Below are positions 966 through 8,938 of a stretch of 64,000 nt of DNA, piece after piece. The stretch covers positions 288,001 through 352,000 of the forward strand of contig OY759599.1 in NCBI GenBank assembly GCA_963662465.1, read 5' to 3'. The notes beneath the pieces are model-generated. The model was given only the letters and a program-made list of their open reading frames with translations. It was not told the origin of the DNA and did not search any database. Position numbers and translations under genes: made by a program. This stretch comes from Desulfatiglandales bacterium (GTDB lineage: Bacteria > Desulfobacterota > DSM-4660 > Desulfatiglandales > Desulfatiglandaceae). The number at the start of each line of letters is the position of its first letter. Positions within the stretch are counted from its first letter, which is position 1.

Positions 966-1760
966 ACCGGATAGGTCGGAGGCCTTACGGCCTCCTTCCC
1001 TACACGGCTCAAGCCTCCGGTAAGGTTTCCCTGGTGGGGATTCCCGCAGATTTGCATCTGCTTCACGTTACAAGCCGGCTGTCAGAATAGCCAAAGGCAC
1101 ACGGGGCGCACCAGCCTCAAGGGCCGTCATTCGCCCGTTTCACTGGCTGCTTTCCCCGCTTTCATCTGATTCCTCCGGTGTTCACGTGATCGGACACCGC
1201 GATGAACGTCTGCCTCCTTACGGAGCCGGGAATGTTTCACCCGGTATCCGAACCATTACAGCCCGGCATTCGCTTTTTTCAGTCTCCTACTCCGGCCCGC
1301 CAACAGCATGCCTTACGGTTAGCCTGCCCCCAAAAGGGGCGACGGGACCGGGTTTCCATGTTCCACATAGTTGATCCAATGGATGACTTAGGTGCGCCCT
1401 CTACGCCGGTGGTACAACAGTTCCGTGCAGGCAGTTGACAGACCTGCAACCTGACCACATCCGCTGACACTGGGCAGCGGCATAAGACCTGTTAATCCTC
1501 GTAGGCCCTTCGCTTGTGATCGACGCTTAAAGACATTCAGATACCTTCACCATATCATCCGACCCTGGCCCTTAACCGGGGAGGATTCCCGGAGGGGTTC
1601 TCCTGTCGCCATTCAAACCCAATTCGGTACGTTGTCCGCAGGGCTTCACACCCCGTCATCAGCGCAACGGCAGCATGCCTGCGTAGGGTCCGGTAGGAAC
1701 ATACCGGGTACTACATGTAACTACATGAATACACTCAAACTATGCGACTTCGTGTCGCAA
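966..1760 (-). mobile_element. ORF-less, degenerate group IIB-type intron inserted after the attC R' core
   Basis: Minus strand starts TTGCGACACGAAGTCGCA and ends ...GAGGCCGTAAGGCCTCCGACCTATCCGGT (domain VI). Shares the IEP-start block GGGGAAAGCAGCCAGTGAAACGGGCGAATGACGG with the intron at 3583-6147. Domain V is cut after GAGCCGTG. Confidence 0.8.
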
Positions 1761-1845
1761 GCCAACGTTAAGCTCACCAGCGCTTCCTCCGGCCCCCGCT
1801 AGGACCGCAGGACTATCAGGCGTCTGGTGCAGCGCTTGGTTCGCG
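1761..1845 (-). other. Integron attC site (attC1)
   Basis: Minus strand CGCGAAC-CAAGCGCTGCACCAGAC...GCTGGTGAGCTTAAC-GTTGGC: R'', L'', L', R' boxes in an imperfect inverted repeat. Confidence 0.85.
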
Positions 1846-2096
1846 ATTCCAGCGGCTAATTGGAATAACGCAGATTTTGGCCCTAAAAACGGAAATATAG
1901 CCCCAAAAAGGAGCAATATTTAGAAACAAACTCTTATATTTTTAGTCAGTTAGCTTGGCCCGACCCCATTTGCACCCCCAATGCTACGGTTCCTTAAAGG
2001 CATGTTTTTGGGGGCGAAAAAAAGTTTTCAAGGTCCAAAACCACCCTATTCCTATCACTAAAACACTGAATGCATTGTTGTATTCTCGGTCCGACC

Positions 2097-3290
2097 CTAG
2101 CCCGCATTGCCTTTGGACCCGGCAAGAACATCAGTCAGCTTTCCCAACCCCCATTCCAAGCTGTACTTGTTGCCGTGCCGCTCCCAGGCCTTGAGACATA
2201 CCAAAAAGACGGTGACCGCCGCCAACCCCAGGACAAATGAGGGAATGGCGCCCATCAAGTCGAATTCCGGATGCCGCCCAGTAAAGAGATACATGATCCA
2301 TAGCGGCAGGGCGATTAGGGGGTAATGTATAAAATAAACGGTTAATGAATGTCTGCTCATGCGCTTAAACCAGGCAGCAAATACCCCGGTTCCGGGAACA
2401 GGGTCTCTTCCATCGTAGTAATAGTACAACAAGGTAAACACTATCAGGGCTTGCCCCACCTGTAGGTAAACCATGGTGTTGGAATCGGGAAAGAGACTGA
2501 AAGGCGAGATGTAATCTGTTATGTGAGACGATTCGGCCCGCAAAAGGCTGGCATAACCGGCGGCAAACGAAAGAAAGATCAGAACAAACCCGATAACCAA
2601 CAGAAAAGGGAGATCTCGTTTCATCTGATTGGCTACGATACGCCGTCCGATCACTAAACCGAACAGGGGAAAGACAAGCCAGGGAAAAACGGGGAAAAAT
2701 CCCGTTAAAAAAAAGCCCCTTATCATTTTAGAAAACCGCCAACTGGGTTCATATTCGCCTGCAGGCTCCACCAGGATGCCTGGAAGGTATTCGGAAATGA
2801 CGGGTGTTTGAATGAATTGTCCTCCCCAGTCGGTCGCAAAATCCACAAAGCCCCGAAGCCAAGGCGACATGAAGACAATTGCTGCGGCCAGAAGGAGAAG
2901 CAGCCATGAAGGTAAAAACCGGCAGAAGTGAAGGACAATGTAGGCTGAACCGATCAGGGTCAAAACGTCCCAGTTCCACACGTTTTTCGGTCCCCAGGCG
3001 AGAACGTTCATCAGGAGTCCGGCAGTAAACACGTATGCGCCGCGAAGAAAGGCCTTCTTCATCAGGTTGTCTTCACCCATCCCTTTTCTTCGTTCGCTGG
3101 AAACCGCCTGACTCACCCCTACCAGCAATAGAAACCAGACCGCACCGAAATCGCCAAGGGCATGGTCCATAATGAAATAAAGCGGATTTTCCGCAGCCTG
3201 AGCATTTCCGTACTCAAGCATATAGTGGCAGATGACCATTCCCGTTAGGGAAAAACCTCTCAGTACATCAATGGATACAATACGCTGCAT
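2097..3290 (-). CDS. Membrane protein, HGSNAT/DUF1624-like acyltransferase domain (cassette gene)
   Basis: RIVSIDVLRG start, multiple TM helices, FFPVFPW and SLTVYFIH motifs. Confidence 0.75.
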   Translation of the reverse strand: MQRIVSIDVLRGFSLTGMVICHYMLEYGNAQAAENPLYFIMDHALGDFGAVWFLLLVGVSQAVSSERRKGMGEDNLMKKAFLRGAYVFTAGLLMNVLAWGPKNVWNWDVLTLIGSAYIVLHFCRFLPSWLLLLLAAAIVFMSPWLRGFVDFATDWGGQFIQTPVISEYLPGILVEPAGEYEPSWRFSKMIRGFFLTGFFPVFPWLVFPLFGLVIGRRIVANQMKRDLPFLLVIGFVLIFLSFAAGYASLLRAESSHITDYISPFSLFPDSNTMVYLQVGQALIVFTLLYYYYDGRDPVPGTGVFAAWFKRMSRHSLTVYFIHYPLIALPLWIMYLFTGRHPEFDLMGAIPSFVLGLAAVTVFLVCLKAWERHGNKYSLEWGLGKLTDVLAGSKGNAG

Positions 3291-3655
3291 GGCTCCTCAT
3301 TTTCAATACACTGAAATTATTCGAATCATCCTTACAGATATGCGTTTCCGGAAAATATAGAAAAAATCCGATCGGGTCCATAAGCATTTTTGAGCTCTGT
3401 CAACAGATGAAAATCGCACAGAATTTCTTTCAGTCAATCATCGTCAAACGATTGGATCTTTTGCCTCATTGGCAGAAAACGACATTCAGATGTTTTGGGT
3501 TCCGAAAAAACACATTGGCTCCAATGAAAAAAACGCAAGCAATTAGATCCAATCACGACTTGCGCGGCCTTTTCCGTTATGGGTCGAGTAGCCAGGGGAT
3601 GTTGCCATCCCCCAGCCCTCTAAGAACCGTGCGTGCGCCGTTAAACGCACACGGC

Positions 3656-5513
3656 TCAAGCATTCCAAAGGCAAGCCCTTTCGGGGCTACCCGGTTGTGA
3701 CGTTTTATGCTCTTTACGCCTGTCTGCCTTCTGCTGACTGCGTTGGGCATATTGTTTCCTGAAATATTGTTCATATTTCGGATCGAAGGGGTTCGCATCC
3801 CCTCGAATTTTGACATGGCGTTTTATCTTGACGTCGTAAGCCTTCTCAAGTTCAATTCTGGCGGATTTCGCATAGCCGTCCTTGATCACCGCTGAAAAGG
3901 ACCACGGGCGAGATCCTTTTGACCAGTATTTATCCACCAGCCAACTCTTACTCTTGCCCGAATGTTTCCTCCTCATCCATTGCCAAATATAGCTGTAGAT
4001 ACGGTGATCTACAAGCCCGAAAGTTCTACCGGAAACCACATGCCTGTGGTAATTGGCCCACCCCCTGATTTTGGGATTGAGTACTTTAATCAGAATGTCG
4101 GCTCTTGATGCCGCATGCTTTCGGATTGTTTTCCGGATATTGCCTAAAAAGGCTTTCACGTTTTTGCGAGAGGGCTTTATCAAAAGTTTTCCTCCGTATT
4201 TGCGTGAACTTTGTCCGAGAAAATCAAATCCTTCTTCTATCCTTGTGATCAACGTCTTTTCCGCTGAAAGCGAAAGACCTCTTCGCTCCATAAATGCTTC
4301 AATTTCCAGCTTGATCTCATTTAGCATCTCTCTGGAATTCCCGGTGATGATAAAATCATCAGCGTAGCGGATTACGTTTATCTTGGACCGTATATTTCCC
4401 TGAATTCTTATCGGGGCGGTGCTTTTGGCTGCCGCTTCCAGACCATCCAGGACCATATTAGCCAATGTTGGAGAGATAATCCCGCCTTATGCAAAGAAAG
4501 TAATTATGCAAAGTAAACCGTAAAAGCCATAATAATTCAAGAGATTCTTGTTGATTTGCTTAGCATAATCTCCACTTATGGTGAATGAGAAAAAGTTCAA
4601 AAAATCATTAGACAAAACAAAGGAGCTATTTTTATCCAAAACAAACGAAGAATGCTGCATCATTTACTTGGCTTTCAAGTCTGAAGTAGTCGTGATATTA
4701 TGCAAAGTAAATTCAGTGCATATGCTTGAAATATTGCACCTTAACTGATTTACTTTGCATAATCGTTAACTTTGCATAAGGCGGGTTATGCAAAGCTTTG
4801 CATAACCCGCCTTGCGGGGTTCCTCTGTATGTCGGATAGAGCTTGCCTCCTTCTACATACCCGGCTTTCAGGCATTTCTGAAGCGTCCGTTTATCCATCG
4901 GGATATTTTCGAGTATCCATTGATGGCTGATTTCATCAAAACAGGCCTTTATATCTCCCTCCAGAATCCATACGGGTGAGTAGCGCTTGGCCAGAGAAAT
5001 AAAACACTGACCGATGGCATTCGCACATCCCCGATAGGGTCTGAACCCGTAAGAGTTCGGATCGGCGGTGGTTTCCGCCACCGGATCAAGCGCCAATTTG
5101 TACAATGCCTGCATGGCTCTGTCCTTCATTGTGGGAATGCCCAATGGGCGTTTCTTGCCGTTTTTCTTGGGTATGTAAATTCGGCGCAGCGGTTTGGGTC
5201 GGTAGGCTCTTCGGCGCAGGTCGTTTACCGCTTGCATTTTGTCAATGTGGGTGGACCATATGACTTTATCCACTCCCGGTGTGCGTTTACCCCGGTTGGA
5301 AGTAACGCGCTTGATAGCCAACAACTTGGCATAAAACGAATGAGTCAAAAGCCACTGTATCACCTTGACTTTTCCCCATCGCTTTTCCTTCACAGCTTTT
5401 GCGATACGCACCTGCAGTCTTCTAACATGCTCCCCGGCGGTTTTCCAGTTTATGGATTTCCACCAGTTTGTTCCGTCCAAAGGTGCACCAGTCGCCAGAA
5501 CGGCCACCGTCAT
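3656..5513 (-). pseudogene. ltrA: Group II intron reverse transcriptase/maturase split by a 325-bp insertion
   Basis: N half (TPGVD, RPLGIPT..DR, YGFRP, EGDIKACFD, GTPQGG) and C half (IISPTLAN, RYADDF, GFDFLG, IRGWANY) rejoin as PQGGIISP when 4481-4805 is removed. Confidence 0.9.
4481..4805. mobile_element. MITE-like insertion in the RT gene
   Basis: About 37-bp imperfect TIRs CCCGCCTTATGCAAAG..ATTATGCAAAGTAAA (4481 and ending 4785), AT-rich interior, extra 20-bp palindrome at 4786-4805. Confidence 0.8.
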
Positions 5514-6147
5514 TCGCCCGTTTCACTGGCTGCTTTCCCCTGTTTGAAGATTCTACAGATTATCTCGCAATGGAACACCGGTCAGAAGTCTGCTCTCTTT
5601 CGAGCCGGATCATGTCGGTGATTACCATCAATCCGTATCCCCATCATTACAACGAGGCATTCGCTTTTTCTGACATCCTTTACCCGCAACCCCATGGGCT
5701 CACCTTGCGGTTCGCTTTCCCCGTGGGGAGGGTTAACGGGCTTACCATGTTCCGCGTAAGTACCCGAGCAGGTTAGGTTCCGCCCTTACGCCGGTGGCAC
5801 GACATCTGCGACGGAGGAGTTCGCAGCCTCCGTTCCTGGCCACGTACCTTTTGGTCCAAGCCTTTCAGCATCTTAGGCTTGTTCTCGTGACGACGCTGCA
5901 GTGATTCACATGTGTTAACCGTACTGCTCAATTCTAGCTCCCTCACCGCATGATGCTTGCAGAGTTGAGGTCCCCTCGCGGTTCCCTCTCCCGGAAAATT
6001 CCGCGGGCTTCATTGTCCCGAGAGCTTCACATCCCCGGATTACTCCGGACGCATGTCCCGGTAGAATACCTGTTGCAGAAAACAGGGTTTTGTTGTATGG
6101 TTTATATTGATATATAAAACAGATACTTACGCGACATCACGTCGCAC

Positions 6148-6229
6148 GCGAACGATAAGCTCACCAGCGCCTTGCACCGGCCCCCGCAAGGACCGCAGAA
6201 CTTTCAGGCGTCTGGTGCAGCGTTTTGTT
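6148..6229 (-). other. Integron attC site (attC2), with introns at both ends
   Basis: Close copy of attC1. Minus strand AAC-AAAACGCTGCACCAGAC...GCTGGTGAGCTTATC-GTTCGC; R'' is restored as TGCCAAC when 6230-7056 is removed. Confidence 0.85.
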
Positions 6230-7056
6230 GTGTGCCGGGCACGGCACGTGTTCTTAAGGGTGCGCGCAATGTACCATGCTTCCGATATTTTACGCAAGTC
6301 CCAGACCCAGCCAGGTAGTGGCGAAGGGTGTAGCGGTATCACAACCGGGTACCCGGTAACGGGCCTGGAGAGGCAGTGGCCTTGCCGCGGCAGGGCACCG
6401 CAAACGCACGGGGCGACGAACAGAAATCGAGTGAGGCGGGTCTGGTGGGACGAGTTCGCAACACAGAACAAAGTCCTCTAACTACTATAGGCCAGGCACG
6501 TTGTCGGCGCTCGTGTGCGGAAAGACACGTGTTTACCCCGGGAGGCCCGTTGCGTCTCGTAGGGAGCTGCAACTGAAATCTACCGGAATATAAGGGAAAA
6601 CCGGTAAAACAAAACCCTGGCGTCAGGAACATTTCGAGTCAGAGCCCTGACGAGCCCGGCCTATTGGTCGGGAAACACAAACAAATGGACTCGACAGATT
6701 GCGGAAACTACGAGTGAGCGAACCGCAAGGGGAGCCCACCGCGTAACGGGAGTCAGCAGAGGGCATATTAAGCCGGAGAAACGAGCCCTGAATAAAGGGA
6801 GGCCTCACTCCGGTGAAGGCCCGGACTGTGCCACCTGCCGAATGGCAGGGGTAAATGGTTGTGTTTGTCAAAGAACGTGTACTTATTGGTCTAATGCAGC
6901 AGTAGCTGAAAGGTCGATAACGTCGCATTCTGGAAAACCCGGTAGGGCGGAACCTGTTTTATCCGTGCCTGCTCTGACCAGCCGAATCGCCGTATACGGA
7001 CCCGTATGTACGGTGGTGTGGGAGGGGGGAGCTGTGAGGCTCCTCCCTATCCCTAT
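6230..7056 (+). mobile_element. ORF-less group IIC-attC intron
   Basis: Starts GTGTGCCGGGCACGGC after TTGTT; GGAGTCAGCAGAGGGCATA and GAAGGCCCGGAC motifs; IIC-type domain V ATCGCCGTATACGGACCCGTATGTACGGTGGTG; ends CCTATCCCTAT; domain IV only about 150 nt. Confidence 0.88.
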
Positions 7057-7357
7057 GGCAGCCCATAGTTCAGGTAATAGCACGGAATTACGGAGGAAAT
7101 ATCTTGGCACTTTGCCTCATAGATGAAGTCTTATTTCCTCTGCAGATTTCGTCTATGCCTGTCACATTCCGCAAAATGTCATAGGGAAAAACAGCTTTGC
7201 ACAACTCCCCTTTGAAAATAATTTTATTCCCTATTCGTAATTCCCATCACTTTAAATTACCCTTCTGACCTCTTCATTTGCCTTCGGATATACTGCTCCC
7301 GTGCGCCAGTCAACAAGAAGCTCAACAGTTCGGTTCTGCAGTCAGAGGAACGTATGG

Positions 7358-7792
7358 TTAGGTGATTTGATTTACACATTTTTCTGCATTCTCAATAAGT
7401 GTAGGAATATTCGGTTTATTGAAACCCATTTCTGGTGCAGGAATTCGGTTATGTTTAATATCGGGTGGAATATGTTTATGATGGGGGTATGAACTTTTCA
7501 GAACAGGATCATTCGGATGAGGCTGAGAATCATACCAGTATAGCTTTTCTTCATCTTTCCATACCTCATAGCCGTACCATTCTATAGTAAGCGGTAAACG
7601 ATCATACAAGAGTCGTTCCCTCACGATAATTCGGACGGAACCGTCAAAATACAATTCACCTGCTACTCTCGCGAGTGTTGCCCCCACCCGGACGAAAGTT
7701 ACGGTCGAATGGCGTACAACGGGGAACTGTTCAGTAATCGTGTACAAAAACAGTTCATAATCTTCCGGTGAGCGAAGCGGATTTTCCTGCAT
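7358..7792 (-). CDS. DUF6516/TumE-like putative toxin (cassette gene)
   Basis: Y.Y....WYDSQPHP...SYPHHKH motif. Confidence 0.65.
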   Translation of the reverse strand: MQENPLRSPEDYELFLYTITEQFPVVRHSTVTFVRVGATLARVAGELYFDGSVRIIVRERLLYDRLPLTIEWYGYEVWKDEEKLYWYDSQPHPNDPVLKSSYPHHKHIPPDIKHNRIPAPEMGFNKPNIPTLIENAEKCVNQIT

Positions 7793-8057
7793 AGGATACC
7801 TTTATCAGTCCTTTTAGACCCGATGATGATTGGCGGATACGCTGAATCTCATTCCGGTATTCTGCCTGCCGGAAAAGCCATGTCCGGTAGATGCTTGCCC
7901 ATTCACCAAAATCCAGAACCCAATTGTCATCTTCAGGTTCTTCACCCTCAATATATGCAGCATACAGGGTTTCAGAGCGAATACCGTATTTGCGCTCAAA
8001 ATTTAGGAGTTCCGTTTCAAGAGCATGAATATCAGTCAGAGTATCATATAAATTCAT
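7755..8057 (-). CDS. Putative antitoxin (TumA-like) paired with the DUF6516 gene
   Basis: LLNFERKYGIRSE..Y.....G.......DFGEW pattern; overlaps the downstream toxin-like gene. Confidence 0.55.
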   Translation of the reverse strand: MNLYDTLTDIHALETELLNFERKYGIRSETLYAAYIEGEEPEDDNWVLDFGEWASIYRTWLFRQAEYRNEIQRIRQSSSGLKGLIKVSYAGKSASLTGRL

Positions 8058-8435
8058 TGTTTTTCCTCATCAATTGGCTGGTCGCCCTCGAACCCTGTTA
8101 ATCGCTCGGCATCATATTAGAAAATGACGTAGCGCCTTGCGTCAAAGATAACGCCTTATTTTCTTTGCAAAGTTGGCTCGGATTTCCCACTCTCGCACAA
8201 TTTTACAAGATCATAAGGATTTTGAATAGTTCCCCCAATAGTTATCATACGTCAGGCGGAGCATTCAACCAAAAACCGTATGGAAACAATGCAAATCACA
8301 CTGAATTACATAGGAAATAGGGCAAAGCTTTAGCACATAGATGATGCCTCCCATCACATATGGATGTTTCCCATCACTTTCGGCTACCCACCAAACCTCT
8401 TCATACCTATTCGCAGTTGCTCCTCACGTCCGCAC

Positions 8436-8559
8436 GCCAACATTGAGTTAAGCTGTAATTTTTCGGCCCAAAAATTGCCGCCCTCCCAACGTGAAAAACG
8501 GCGACAAACTCTCAAATGCAATTTTTGGGACGAAAAATATCAGTCTTGAACCATTGGTT
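8436..8559 (-). other. Integron attC site (attC3, different sequence family)
   Basis: Minus strand AAC-CAATGGTTCAAGACTG...CAGCTTAACTCAAT-GTTGGC with long internal inverted repeat (TTTTTCGTCCCAAAAATTGC / GCAATTTTTGGGCCGAAAAA). Confidence 0.8.
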
Positions 8560-8938
8560 GTGTGCCGGGCACGGCACGTGTTCTTAAGGGTGCGCGTAAT
8601 GTATCATGCTTCCGATATGTTACGCAAGTCCCAGACCCAGCCAGGTAGTGGCGAAGGGTGTAGCGGTGTATCACAACCGGGTACCCGGTAACGGGCCTGG
8701 AGAGGCAGTGGCCTTGCTGCGGCAGGGCACCGCAAACGCACGGGGCGACGAACAGAAATCGAGTGAGGCGGGTTTGGTGGGACGAGTTCGCAACACAGAA
8801 CAAAGTCCTCTAACTACTATAGGCCAGGCACGTTGTCGGCGCTCGTGTGCGGAAAGACACGTGTTTACCCCGGGAGGCCCGTTGCGTCTCGTAGGGAACT
8901 GCAACTGAAATCTACCGGAATATAAGGGAAAACCGGTA
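8560..8938 (+). mobile_element. 5' fragment of a second copy of the IIC-attC intron
   Basis: Near-identical to 6230-6606, inserted after TGGTT of attC3; similarity stops at GGAAAACCGGTA. Confidence 0.88.

Follow-up and report, generated by a model that had tools for sequence, protein, structure and literature searches.

Group IIB-type introns in sense orientation at the attC core site of integrons in a Desulfatiglandales genome

In the available text of a 2015 review (PMC4424553), three target specificities of group II introns are distinguished: homing sites, terminator motifs, and attC sites. The last two are tied there to class IIC; insertion at attC is given as a feature of class C (IIC), in antisense orientation, and homing as a feature of all lineages but class C. 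The IIC-attC introns, such as S.ma.I2, are described in the accessible parts of the reports (PMC3001079; PMC4424553) as bottom-strand insertions at the R'' end of attC, which are antisense, separate a gene from its attC, and block transcription from Pc. One IIB1 intron, UHB.I2, has also been reported at attC (Sonbol and Siam 2021, Mob DNA 12:8, PMC7923331). As far as the available text goes, it has an endonuclease-less reverse transcriptase (RT) of class CL1 and the ends 5'-UUGCG..GU-3', and it lies in cassette orientation directly after the attC top strand; the exons of its homologues were found to be poorly conserved, and its authors speculated on a role of the hairpin. The introns of T. elongatus are assigned to subclass IIB1 and are closest to the CL/IIB1 intron EcI5; exon-binding site 2 (EBS2) of one of them, TeI4h, was hard to identify (PMC2882425, available parts). 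Here we describe two introns in a window of 64,000 nucleotides from a Desulfatiglandales bacterium (assembly GCA_963662465.1, contig OY759599.1, positions 288,001 to 352,000). Intron A (3583..6147, minus strand) and intron B (966..1760, minus strand) each lie directly 3' of the GTTNNN of an attC R' core, in the top strand and in the cassette direction.

Introns A and B are likely to be retroelements of a chloroplast-like (CL)/IIB1 group II lineage with a specialisation for the core site of integrons; elements of this kind have been described once before, as UHB.I2. They resemble UHB.I2 in the IIB1 RNA, the endonuclease-less RT, and the sense position after attC, and the boundaries of UHB.I2 are like those of window B; the RTs of UHB.I2 and A have long motifs in common as judged by eye rather than by a computed comparison. 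UHB.I2 was a single copy on one metagenome contig, and in the available text its authors proposed no core-site specificity, whereas the present genome contains about 28 copies, empty and filled sites, attI-adjacent copies, covariation between EBS1 and R', and a clade of attC-flanked relatives. With the IIC-attC introns, as far as these are described in the sources at hand, A and B share integron specificity, the lack of an endonuclease domain, and a place at the attC edge; they differ in being IIB-type, in being inserted at the R' end of the top strand in sense orientation, and in having a 6-nt EBS1 in a d3-type hairpin. The TeI4/TeI3 introns include the closest solved RT and are also CL/IIB1 elements, with proliferation, derivatives without an open reading frame (ORF) that are served in trans, and EBS divergence between families; according to the same partly available source (PMC2882425), they home to diverse chromosomal sites and not to integron sites. 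The TeI4h protein has 562 aa and a reported endonuclease domain, whereas the A RT has 510 aa, matches it only up to residue 485, and yielded no nuclease domain. The CL-type introns of enterobacterial plasmids are of the same broad RT class and have a similar 5' end (GUGCGACGUGAAGUCGC), but fall outside the attC-associated clade, and their 5' exons do not end in GTTNNN. The original prediction mentioned occasional reports of IIB introns at attC. One was located, that of UHB.I2 (PMC7923331, available text), and a search of the open full-text literature, which does not extend to subscription-only papers, found no other. As far as these searches show, lineage-wide targeting of the core site and its EBS1 logic are not in print within the openly searchable literature.

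On the minus strand, with a slash at the junction, intron B begins at ...GCTTAACGTTGGC/TTGCGACACG (1761/1760; longer reading ...GGTGAGCTTAACGTTGGC/TTGCGACACGAAG), and intron A at ...GCTTATCGTTCGC/GTGCGACGTG (6148/6147; longer reading ...GGTGAGCTTATCGTTCGC/GTGCGACGTGATG). The site of intron B is attC no. 1 (1761..1845, minus strand), a profile match at genome 289762-289851, with R' GTTGGC (1761-1766) and R'' GCGAAC (1839-1844), both read as reverse complement. The site of intron A is attC no. 2 (6148..6229, minus strand), with R' GTTCGC (reverse complement of 6148-6153) and the AAC of R'' at 6227-6229; the remainder of this R'' lies past a third intron, C, at about 7057-7060. It had been predicted that both introns start exactly 6 nt into R' and carry matching stem-loops, and every position agreed when re-read in the sequence, as did the stem-loops and hexamers proposed as EBS1. 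In intron A, EBS1 (GCGAAC; 5819..5824, minus strand) lies in the hairpin ACGGAGG-CUGCGAACU-CCUCCGU and pairs 6/6 with GUUCGC. In intron B, the hairpin UGCAGG-UCUGUCAACUG-CCUGCA contains GUCAAC (1434..1439, minus strand), which pairs with GUUGGC with one G-U; the EBS2 candidate ACAAGC (1512..1517, minus strand) is complementary to GCUUGU, its loop position being taken from the relatives L020 and L038. Intron A runs from GUGCGAC to CUCGAC, and the predicted spliced exon joint is ...ATCGTTCGC/CCATAACGG. Intron B is ORF-less and runs from UUGCGAC to ...CCGGU; its 3' boundary was set by homology to the B copy at 3353258, for which an empty site fixes the boundary.

The 5' GUGYG and the conserved domain I of group II introns are found in A (GUGCG) and, as the variant UUGCG, in B; RF02012 matches both (5938-6087, 114.8 bits, and 1568-1708, 78.4 bits, respectively). 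Domains V/VI are recognised in intron A by RF00029 (3583-3659, 55 bits) and are not recognised in window B. An RT with a maturase is encoded by intact A copies elsewhere in the genome; in the window the gene of A is split, and B has no ORF. In a PDB search, the intact A RT (510 aa) matched the TeI4h RT (6me0) over residues 7-485 with an E-value of 2.6e-170, compared with 1.4e-42 for LtrA (IIA) and 5.8e-34 and 1.6e-30 for IIC RTs. Its Pfam domains are RVT_N, RVT_1, and GIIM, and no nuclease domain was found by Pfam. The ltrA genes of enterobacterial plasmids show about 55% identity to it. The IIB class predicted for intron A is therefore borne out by an RT that is closest to the IIB1 protein TeI4h, IIA and IIC RTs being far weaker matches. 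Grouping of the A RT with the CL/IIB1 class is supported by these matches to solved structures, which do not separate CL1 from CL2.

The 90 nt 5' of each intron form an imperfect inverted repeat, (R'')GCGAAC-CAAACGCTGCACCAGACGCC ... GGCGCTGGTGAGCTTGTC-GTTNNN(R'). Its arms covary in an alignment of 17 sites, for example CACCAGACGCC/GGCGCTGGTG versus CAGCGGACCCC/GGGGCCGCTG. With our own profile, built from these 17 aligned sites and used in place of the IntegronFinder attC model, 55 attC sites were found in the 8.16-Mb genome; they lie in arrays, and 18 of the 55 are occupied by such introns. The genome contains 28 intron 5' ends, 12 of A and 16 of B/D: 22 come after an attC or attC-like site, four after an attI-like site, and two behind another intron copy. 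For A, ten are after attC, one is after an attI-like repeat, and one is behind another A; for B/D the numbers are 12 (attC or attC-like), three, and one behind an A. One of these 12 B/D sites is only the 3' half of an attC, and two are short attC-like hairpins.

The exact insertion site was read from a cassette that starts with CAGACCCGCTGG. It is empty at three places (GTTGGA/CAGACCC), and it is filled with A at 3337135-3339699 and with B at 3353258, both as GTTGGC/intron/CAGACCC. Insertion therefore occurs between positions 6 and 7 of GTTRRRY, without duplication. Apart from this cassette (one A and one B), the 3' exons differ between copies, the first base being C, T, A, or G, and this indicates many separate insertions. 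At 3329531-3334776, two A copies and one B copy are stacked head to tail behind one attC, an arrangement expected if insertion recurs while the 5' exon stays the same.

The pairing was analysed in an alignment of the first 620 nt of 24 introns (22 distinct), which comprise the A, B, and D variants of the genome and outside relatives. In the alifold consensus, the EBS1 loop is the terminal loop of a hairpin enclosed by a second stem; the EBS2 region lies on one side of it and the helix that closes domain I on the other. The stem of this hairpin has seven pairs, each with 3-5 standard pair types and paired in 18-22 of the 22 rows. The loop is complementary to the last six exon bases at 6/6 positions in 10 rows, 5/6 in 11, and 4/6 in 1, and the best match has a constant loop offset in 18/22 rows. 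Four non-attC targets are among the 21/22 rows with 5-6 matches. Row L023 was extracted 3 nt off; with a GUGUG boundary it pairs CCGCUU with AAGCGG. At attC sites, GCGAAC pairs with GUUCGC (A), GCUAAC with GUUAGC (B at 3322313, and L035), CUCGAAC with GUUCGAG (D at 3306435), and CUAACG with CGUUGG (L051). At non-attC sites, the pairs are CUCCCA with UGGGAG (L036), CAUUAC with GUAAUG (L038), CCGGUG with CACUGG (L043), and AUGUGU with ACACUU (L020); L038 is grouped here although only 105 nt of its 5' flank, in which no clear attC is seen, bear on the assignment. The junction of D (GTTCGAG/) fits its 7-nt EBS1. Because EBS1 ends in AAC in every attC-associated intron (in L051 the loop reads CUAACG), it has the sequence type of the inverse core R''. 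The prediction of matching EBS1 loops was thus upheld, as folding places them on a d3-type hairpin, whose stem covaries and whose loop tracks the exon.

The EBS2 loop lies 5' of the next hairpin. In L020, UAACACAAA pairs with UUUGUGUUA over 9 bp, and in L038, GUUUC pairs with GAAAC over 5 bp. In B, ACAAGC pairs over 6 bp with GCUUGU, which stands one base upstream of intron-binding site 1 (IBS1) in most attCs of the family; the exon of window B itself reads GCUUAA there (4/6). The same ACAAGC was considered as EBS2 of A and rejected, since it belongs to a conserved stem and is found in a non-attC relative too.

Close relatives were found in six genomes besides the present one (G000), among 209 genomes of the order. 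A Desulfobacterales metagenome-assembled genome (MAG) has an intron with an 85%-identical RT after an attC that ends in GTTCGG (L025; genome collection), and a Desulfobacterium MAG (82%) has two copies after an attC-like hairpin (L027, L030). The copies of a Trueperaceae MAG (54%) and a Desulfamplus MAG (50%) are not at attC. In metagenomes, clear attC hairpins precede L032 (85%), L033 (68%), and L035 (55%); L036 (53%) is located within an ORF, and L034 begins at a contig end. The introns of genomes G162 and G163 start with UUGCGAC after ...CGTTAA, CGTTGG, CGTTAT, or CGTTAG and have the EBS1 CUAACG. L039, L046, L048, and L051 follow a 125-nt attC family, and L049 an attC ending in GTTAAG; L043 is not at attC, L041, L045, and L038 are ambiguous, and no junction was found for L040, L042, and L053. 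Hairpins of the attC type stand 5' of L025, L027, L030, L032, L033, L035, L039, L046, L048, L049, and L051. A hairpin scan of the 5' flanks separates the strong attCs (L032, L033, L035) from non-attC flanks; the long attCs of G162/G163, which it missed or mis-paired, were read by eye and are less firm.

The A and B lineages group together as a single clade of the RT tree (support 82/82), within a 100/97 clade that includes L035. When five plasmid CL-type RTs were added, the A+B clade had an SH-aLRT of 90, and the enterobacterial, Trueperaceae, L036, and Desulfamplus introns fell outside the attC-associated clade. The trees are small and midpoint-rooted. The clustering of attC-flanked introns in them is suggestive, since kin share labels. 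The original prediction would have been in difficulty if its homologues lay mostly in non-attC targets; the close relatives examined are largely attC-flanked and cluster in the RT tree.

Several observations weigh against a lineage specialised on the core site. The EBS2-IBS2 pairing of A and its close relatives has at most 4 bp and is displaced. Among the 12 A copies, EBS1 and IBS1 match at 6/6 positions in 6, 5/6 in 4, and 4/6 in 1, and one copy is stacked. The junction reads GTTGTGC/ and GTTCG/ at two attI-like sites and G/TTGCGAC at 2371487; the number of nucleotides from the G onward also varies: it is 5 for the lineage of G162/G163 and for one attI site, 7 for some other sites, and 1 for 2371487. 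The attI-like sites share only GTTNNN with attC, yet four of about nine are occupied, so that the sequence requirement of the intron is very small or, alternatively, these copies came with cassettes. In the tree, the attC-flanked L035 forms a polytomy with a Simkania plasmid intron immediately outside the core clade; L038 is inside the clade, although the 105 nt upstream of it show no clear attC. The exon joints 6148->3582 and 1761->965 are absent from the contigs of four runs, which is uninformative on expression.

The sequence GTTCGC occurs 2851 times in the genome, and EBS1 alone therefore cannot explain the distribution. Specificity must depend on something more, for which the candidates are protein contacts, DNA in single-stranded or hairpin form, spread by the integrase, and selection for harmless sites. 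The best-surviving alternative to core-site pairing is hairpin-guided targeting as in IIC, in which the ribonucleoprotein would mainly read the folded attC top strand and EBS1 would add the last few pairs. Six pairs are too few for specificity given that count, A has no clear EBS2, and relatives stand behind attCs of quite different sequence families and lengths; the idea itself was raised for UHB.I2 by Sonbol and Siam (PMC7923331, available text). However, the four copies at attI-like sites have no comparable inverted repeat in the 110 nt upstream, and in the non-attC relatives, which have no hairpin upstream, the same loop serves for ordinary EBS1 pairing. The 6-bp EBS2 match of B is typical of sequence-guided IIB homing, and the GTT of IBS1 would itself be paired with R'' in the folded top strand. 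We regard this alternative as unlikely.

Even less probable, in our view, is that the distribution was made mostly by the integron and by selection, with a few insertions at cassette 5' ends spread by IntI and copies elsewhere purged. The position of the intron inside the cassette boundary would fit this, and at 2371487 the intron comes directly after the G of the crossover. In addition to the four occupied attI-like sites, a fifth holds a 9-nt 5' intron remnant, and attI is the entry point of new cassettes. An intron moved by the integrase would, however, keep its downstream cassette, whereas the 3' exons differ except for the one cassette that A and B share. The A-A-B stack points to repeated insertion at the same 5' exon, and the EBS1 NNNAAC is found throughout the attC-associated lineages. 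The same comparison bears on the predicted geometry, namely an intact G/TT crossover with the intron riding at the 5' end of the next cassette. The geometry fits, but no duplicated intron-plus-cassette unit was found among the copies: identical 3' flanks are limited to the cassette common to one A and one B copy, and none occurs with the same intron. The copies next to attI may have been inserted there directly, guided by GTTNNN, or may have come with a cassette; their position fits both.

The attI-like label refers to a conserved repeat ending in ...CACTGGTTCGT (repeat ...AAAAAAAACCGTATAATCACTGGTTNNN). In locus L067 it lies 245 bp from the start of an integrase ORF that is divergent, and a similar distance is seen at genome 4983167. 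A partial integrase remnant lies by such a repeat near 3200232; other copies have no integrase match nearby. In all, the genome has at least five loci with an integrase and about nine attI-like repeats, of which several lack an integrase match nearby. The integron integrase of L067 (3101-4495, 4688-6013, 6461-6700) carries a long extension at its N-terminus; it is interrupted by an insertion sequence, whose 441-aa ORF is taken as a putative transposase.

The strand assignment rests on the integrases, on a cassette ORF, and on intron C. Integron integrases above the TIGR02249 cut-off were found at 3287696-3288643 (-), 4425408-4426355 (+), 4981289-4982224 (-), and 6792755-6793702 (+), and a disrupted one at 6845296-6848178 (+). 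At each locus, the modelled attCs and the A/B introns are directed away from the integrase, and intI is divergent from the array. In the window, the cassette between attC no. 1 and no. 2, downstream of intron A, encodes a 397-aa acyltransferase (2097..3290, minus strand; Pfam HGSNAT_cat 2.9e-23, Acyl_transf_3 1.9e-12) on the same strand as A and B. Intron C (6230..7056) is an ORF-less IIC-type intron on the plus strand, i.e. antisense in the attC bottom strand; its 5' exon ends in ...TTTTGTT and it starts with GUGUGCC, at the R'' end, and 10/10 of its genome copies come after (T/G)GTT. The prediction of a top-strand, sense insertion after position 6 of R' accordingly holds, because intI is divergent from the arrays, the cassette ORF runs in the same direction, and the IIC intron is on the other strand. 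That A and B might be ordinary antisense attC introns of the IIC kind in the bottom strand, to which the likewise possible plus-strand reading of the window attCs as RYYYAAC ... GTTRRRY could lead, has a negligible chance of being correct and is already contradicted by the divergent integrases, the shared strand of the cassette ORF, the position of intron C, and the IIB-like rather than IIC-like RT.

With their IIB-like RT and their sense position in the top strand, A and B do not belong to the IIC-attC introns, whose strand and position are those of intron C. The IIC class of intron C is based on its insertion behaviour and its Rfam family (RF02001 at 6350-6532, 86.1 bits; RF00029 at 6985-7056, 45 bits); it presumably resembles an Oceanobacillus IIC intron. 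The site attC no. 2 is occupied on both strands, by a IIB-type intron after R' in the top strand and by a IIC-type intron after the R'' GTT in the bottom strand. The same double occupancy was seen at three further attCs (3345184-3345270, 3353174-3353257, and 2371408-2371486).

If A and B are core-site-specialised IIB1 retroelements, their EBS1 loop NNNAAC would base-pair with GTTNNN of R' in the top strand, in line with the covariation, and the intron would reverse splice in cassette orientation at the place that the empty and filled sites show, between positions 6 and 7 of the core. In B, EBS2 ACAAGC may add pairing with the complementary GCUUGU just upstream, which is not evident in A. Since the RT has no endonuclease domain, cDNA synthesis would have to be primed from host replication. 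Because the insertion is 3' of the G/TT crossover, the attC retains six of its seven core bases, and the intron becomes the first element of the downstream cassette. The attC may retain its function, as the seventh core base alone changes, and we infer from the geometry that the intron would be co-mobilised with the downstream cassette. The intron would be transcribed with the cassettes and spliced out. ORF-less copies and copies with a broken RT would depend on intact RTs elsewhere in the genome.

A wider scheme is put forward tentatively, as one that may well prove wrong in part. A monophyletic CL/IIB1 branch, with an EBS1 that copies the inverse core NNNAAC, would home to the universal GTTRRR of attC and attI in the top strand, with insertion one base within the boundary of the cassette. 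The attC would stay recombinogenic, and the integrase would carry the intron with cassettes, including to attI behind Pc, where it would be transcribed and would splice. Both attC strands would then be parasitised by unrelated classes, the other being IIC, and recombination between copies of sense-oriented introns, which have an attC as 5' exon, could help to join attC ends to new genes.

If true, EBS1 pairing of IIB1 introns onto the attC/attI core in sense orientation would be a second, mechanistically different way of living in integrons. Such a lineage would leave the recombination site nearly intact; cassette transcripts could be freed of it by splicing, and cassettes should carry it along. 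The genome is a natural experiment on target choice, since it combines intact donors with derivatives that lack the RT or have a dead ribozyme, and has sites both empty and filled as well as stacks. IIB1 introns are the class used as programmable gene-targeting tools, and a natural variant aimed at integron cores may interest those who manipulate cassette arrays.

The window copies themselves look defective. The genome has 11 full A copies, five with an intact 510-aa RT and six, including that of the window, with a split RT. Window A has a ribozyme that looks complete; its RT is split at the codons GTPQGG/GG by a 325-bp element (4481..4805, no strand assigned) with terminal inverted repeats TTATGCAAAG...CTTTGCATAA and an 8-bp target duplication. 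The N-terminal piece (4713..5522, minus strand) covers RVT_N and RVT_1 profile positions 1-123; the C-terminal piece (3656..4486, minus strand) covers RVT_1 positions 122-203 and the GIIM maturase, with no endonuclease domain. The joint 4480->4806, which represents the form of A without this element, is present in the contigs of 4/4 runs; a contig joint 1760->3583 is the stacked A-B junction of another genomic copy. In window B, no RF00029 match was obtained even at E ≤ 1, and alignment with nine other B copies showed a domain V without its 3' half. Window B is probably splicing-dead because of this truncation. The domain V of other B copies is canonical, and there is one relative copy with an RT (450963). 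Judged from sequence, both window copies are probably non-autonomous or dead; the original prediction was right about their IIB type and their site, and is corrected here as to their state.

The 325-bp element has eight copies in the genome (window 4481-4805; genome 3346638, 3350322, 6842534, 3338476, 2365510, 4989421, and 3215916), and 8/8 are in RT genes. Seven of the eight are at identical codons, GTPQGG/GG(I/V)(I/V)SP, at RVT_1 profile position 122/123; the eighth (2365510) is partial, with the right-hand junction only. The host genes belong to three RT families and include those of two introns with a different RNA type (RF02005). The copies diverge by up to 18%, and the inner part is found in both orientations. 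One end resembles the end of an ISL3-type insertion sequence in genome G155; among the 209 genomes of the order, one weak end match was found outside this genome. The element has the appearance of a small transposon that targets a conserved motif of RTs. A second insert, of 3.2 kb, is present at the domain V/VI junction of five B copies (5886487, 3322313, 3314683, 6752326, 6379417) and one D copy; an insert-bearing locus is L065 (980-3091). It encodes a 703-aa large serine recombinase in antisense and is flanked in the B copies by the repeat GTGGTTCTGAGGG. Its sequence, identical in the five B copies, was also considered as a shared downstream cassette, which was rejected because it lies inside the intron: the composite ends in a normal intron 3' end, followed by different exons. 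Either the whole composite retrohomed, or the copies were each targeted by the insert independently.

Intron-free R' cores with GTGCG 0-1 bases downstream were found in the window at 8423-8436 (-) and in the genome at 3200391, 3309837, 3743213, 6840007, and 3221241. The window case belongs to attC no. 3 (8437..8560, minus strand), a member of a longer family, with R' GTTGGC (reverse complement of 8437-8442) and no intron, followed by GTGCGGACGTGAGG; at one attI-like site, GTGCGACGT follows GTTCGC before unrelated sequence sets in. Introns that were once present and then lost may have left these as scars. A second copy of intron C lies next to attC no. 3 as a 5' fragment (8561..8938, plus strand; RF02001 at 8682-8864, 84.2 bits).

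By cumulative GC skew, replication starts near 5.74 Mb and ends near 1.78 Mb. The sense strand is the leading-strand template, i.e. head-on to replication, in 11/12 A and 15/16 B/D copies, and 10/10 IIC copies are co-directional; since few arrays are involved, the copies do not count as independent. Between attC no. 3 and no. 2, a cassette (7358..8057, minus strand) contains a TumE-like toxin ORF (7358-7792, Pfam TumE 1.3e-11) and an overlapping small upstream ORF (7755-8057), which matched no Pfam family. The pair has the look of a toxin-antitoxin cassette, and such cassettes in intron-bearing arrays were noted in the available text of Sonbol and Siam 2021 (PMC7923331).

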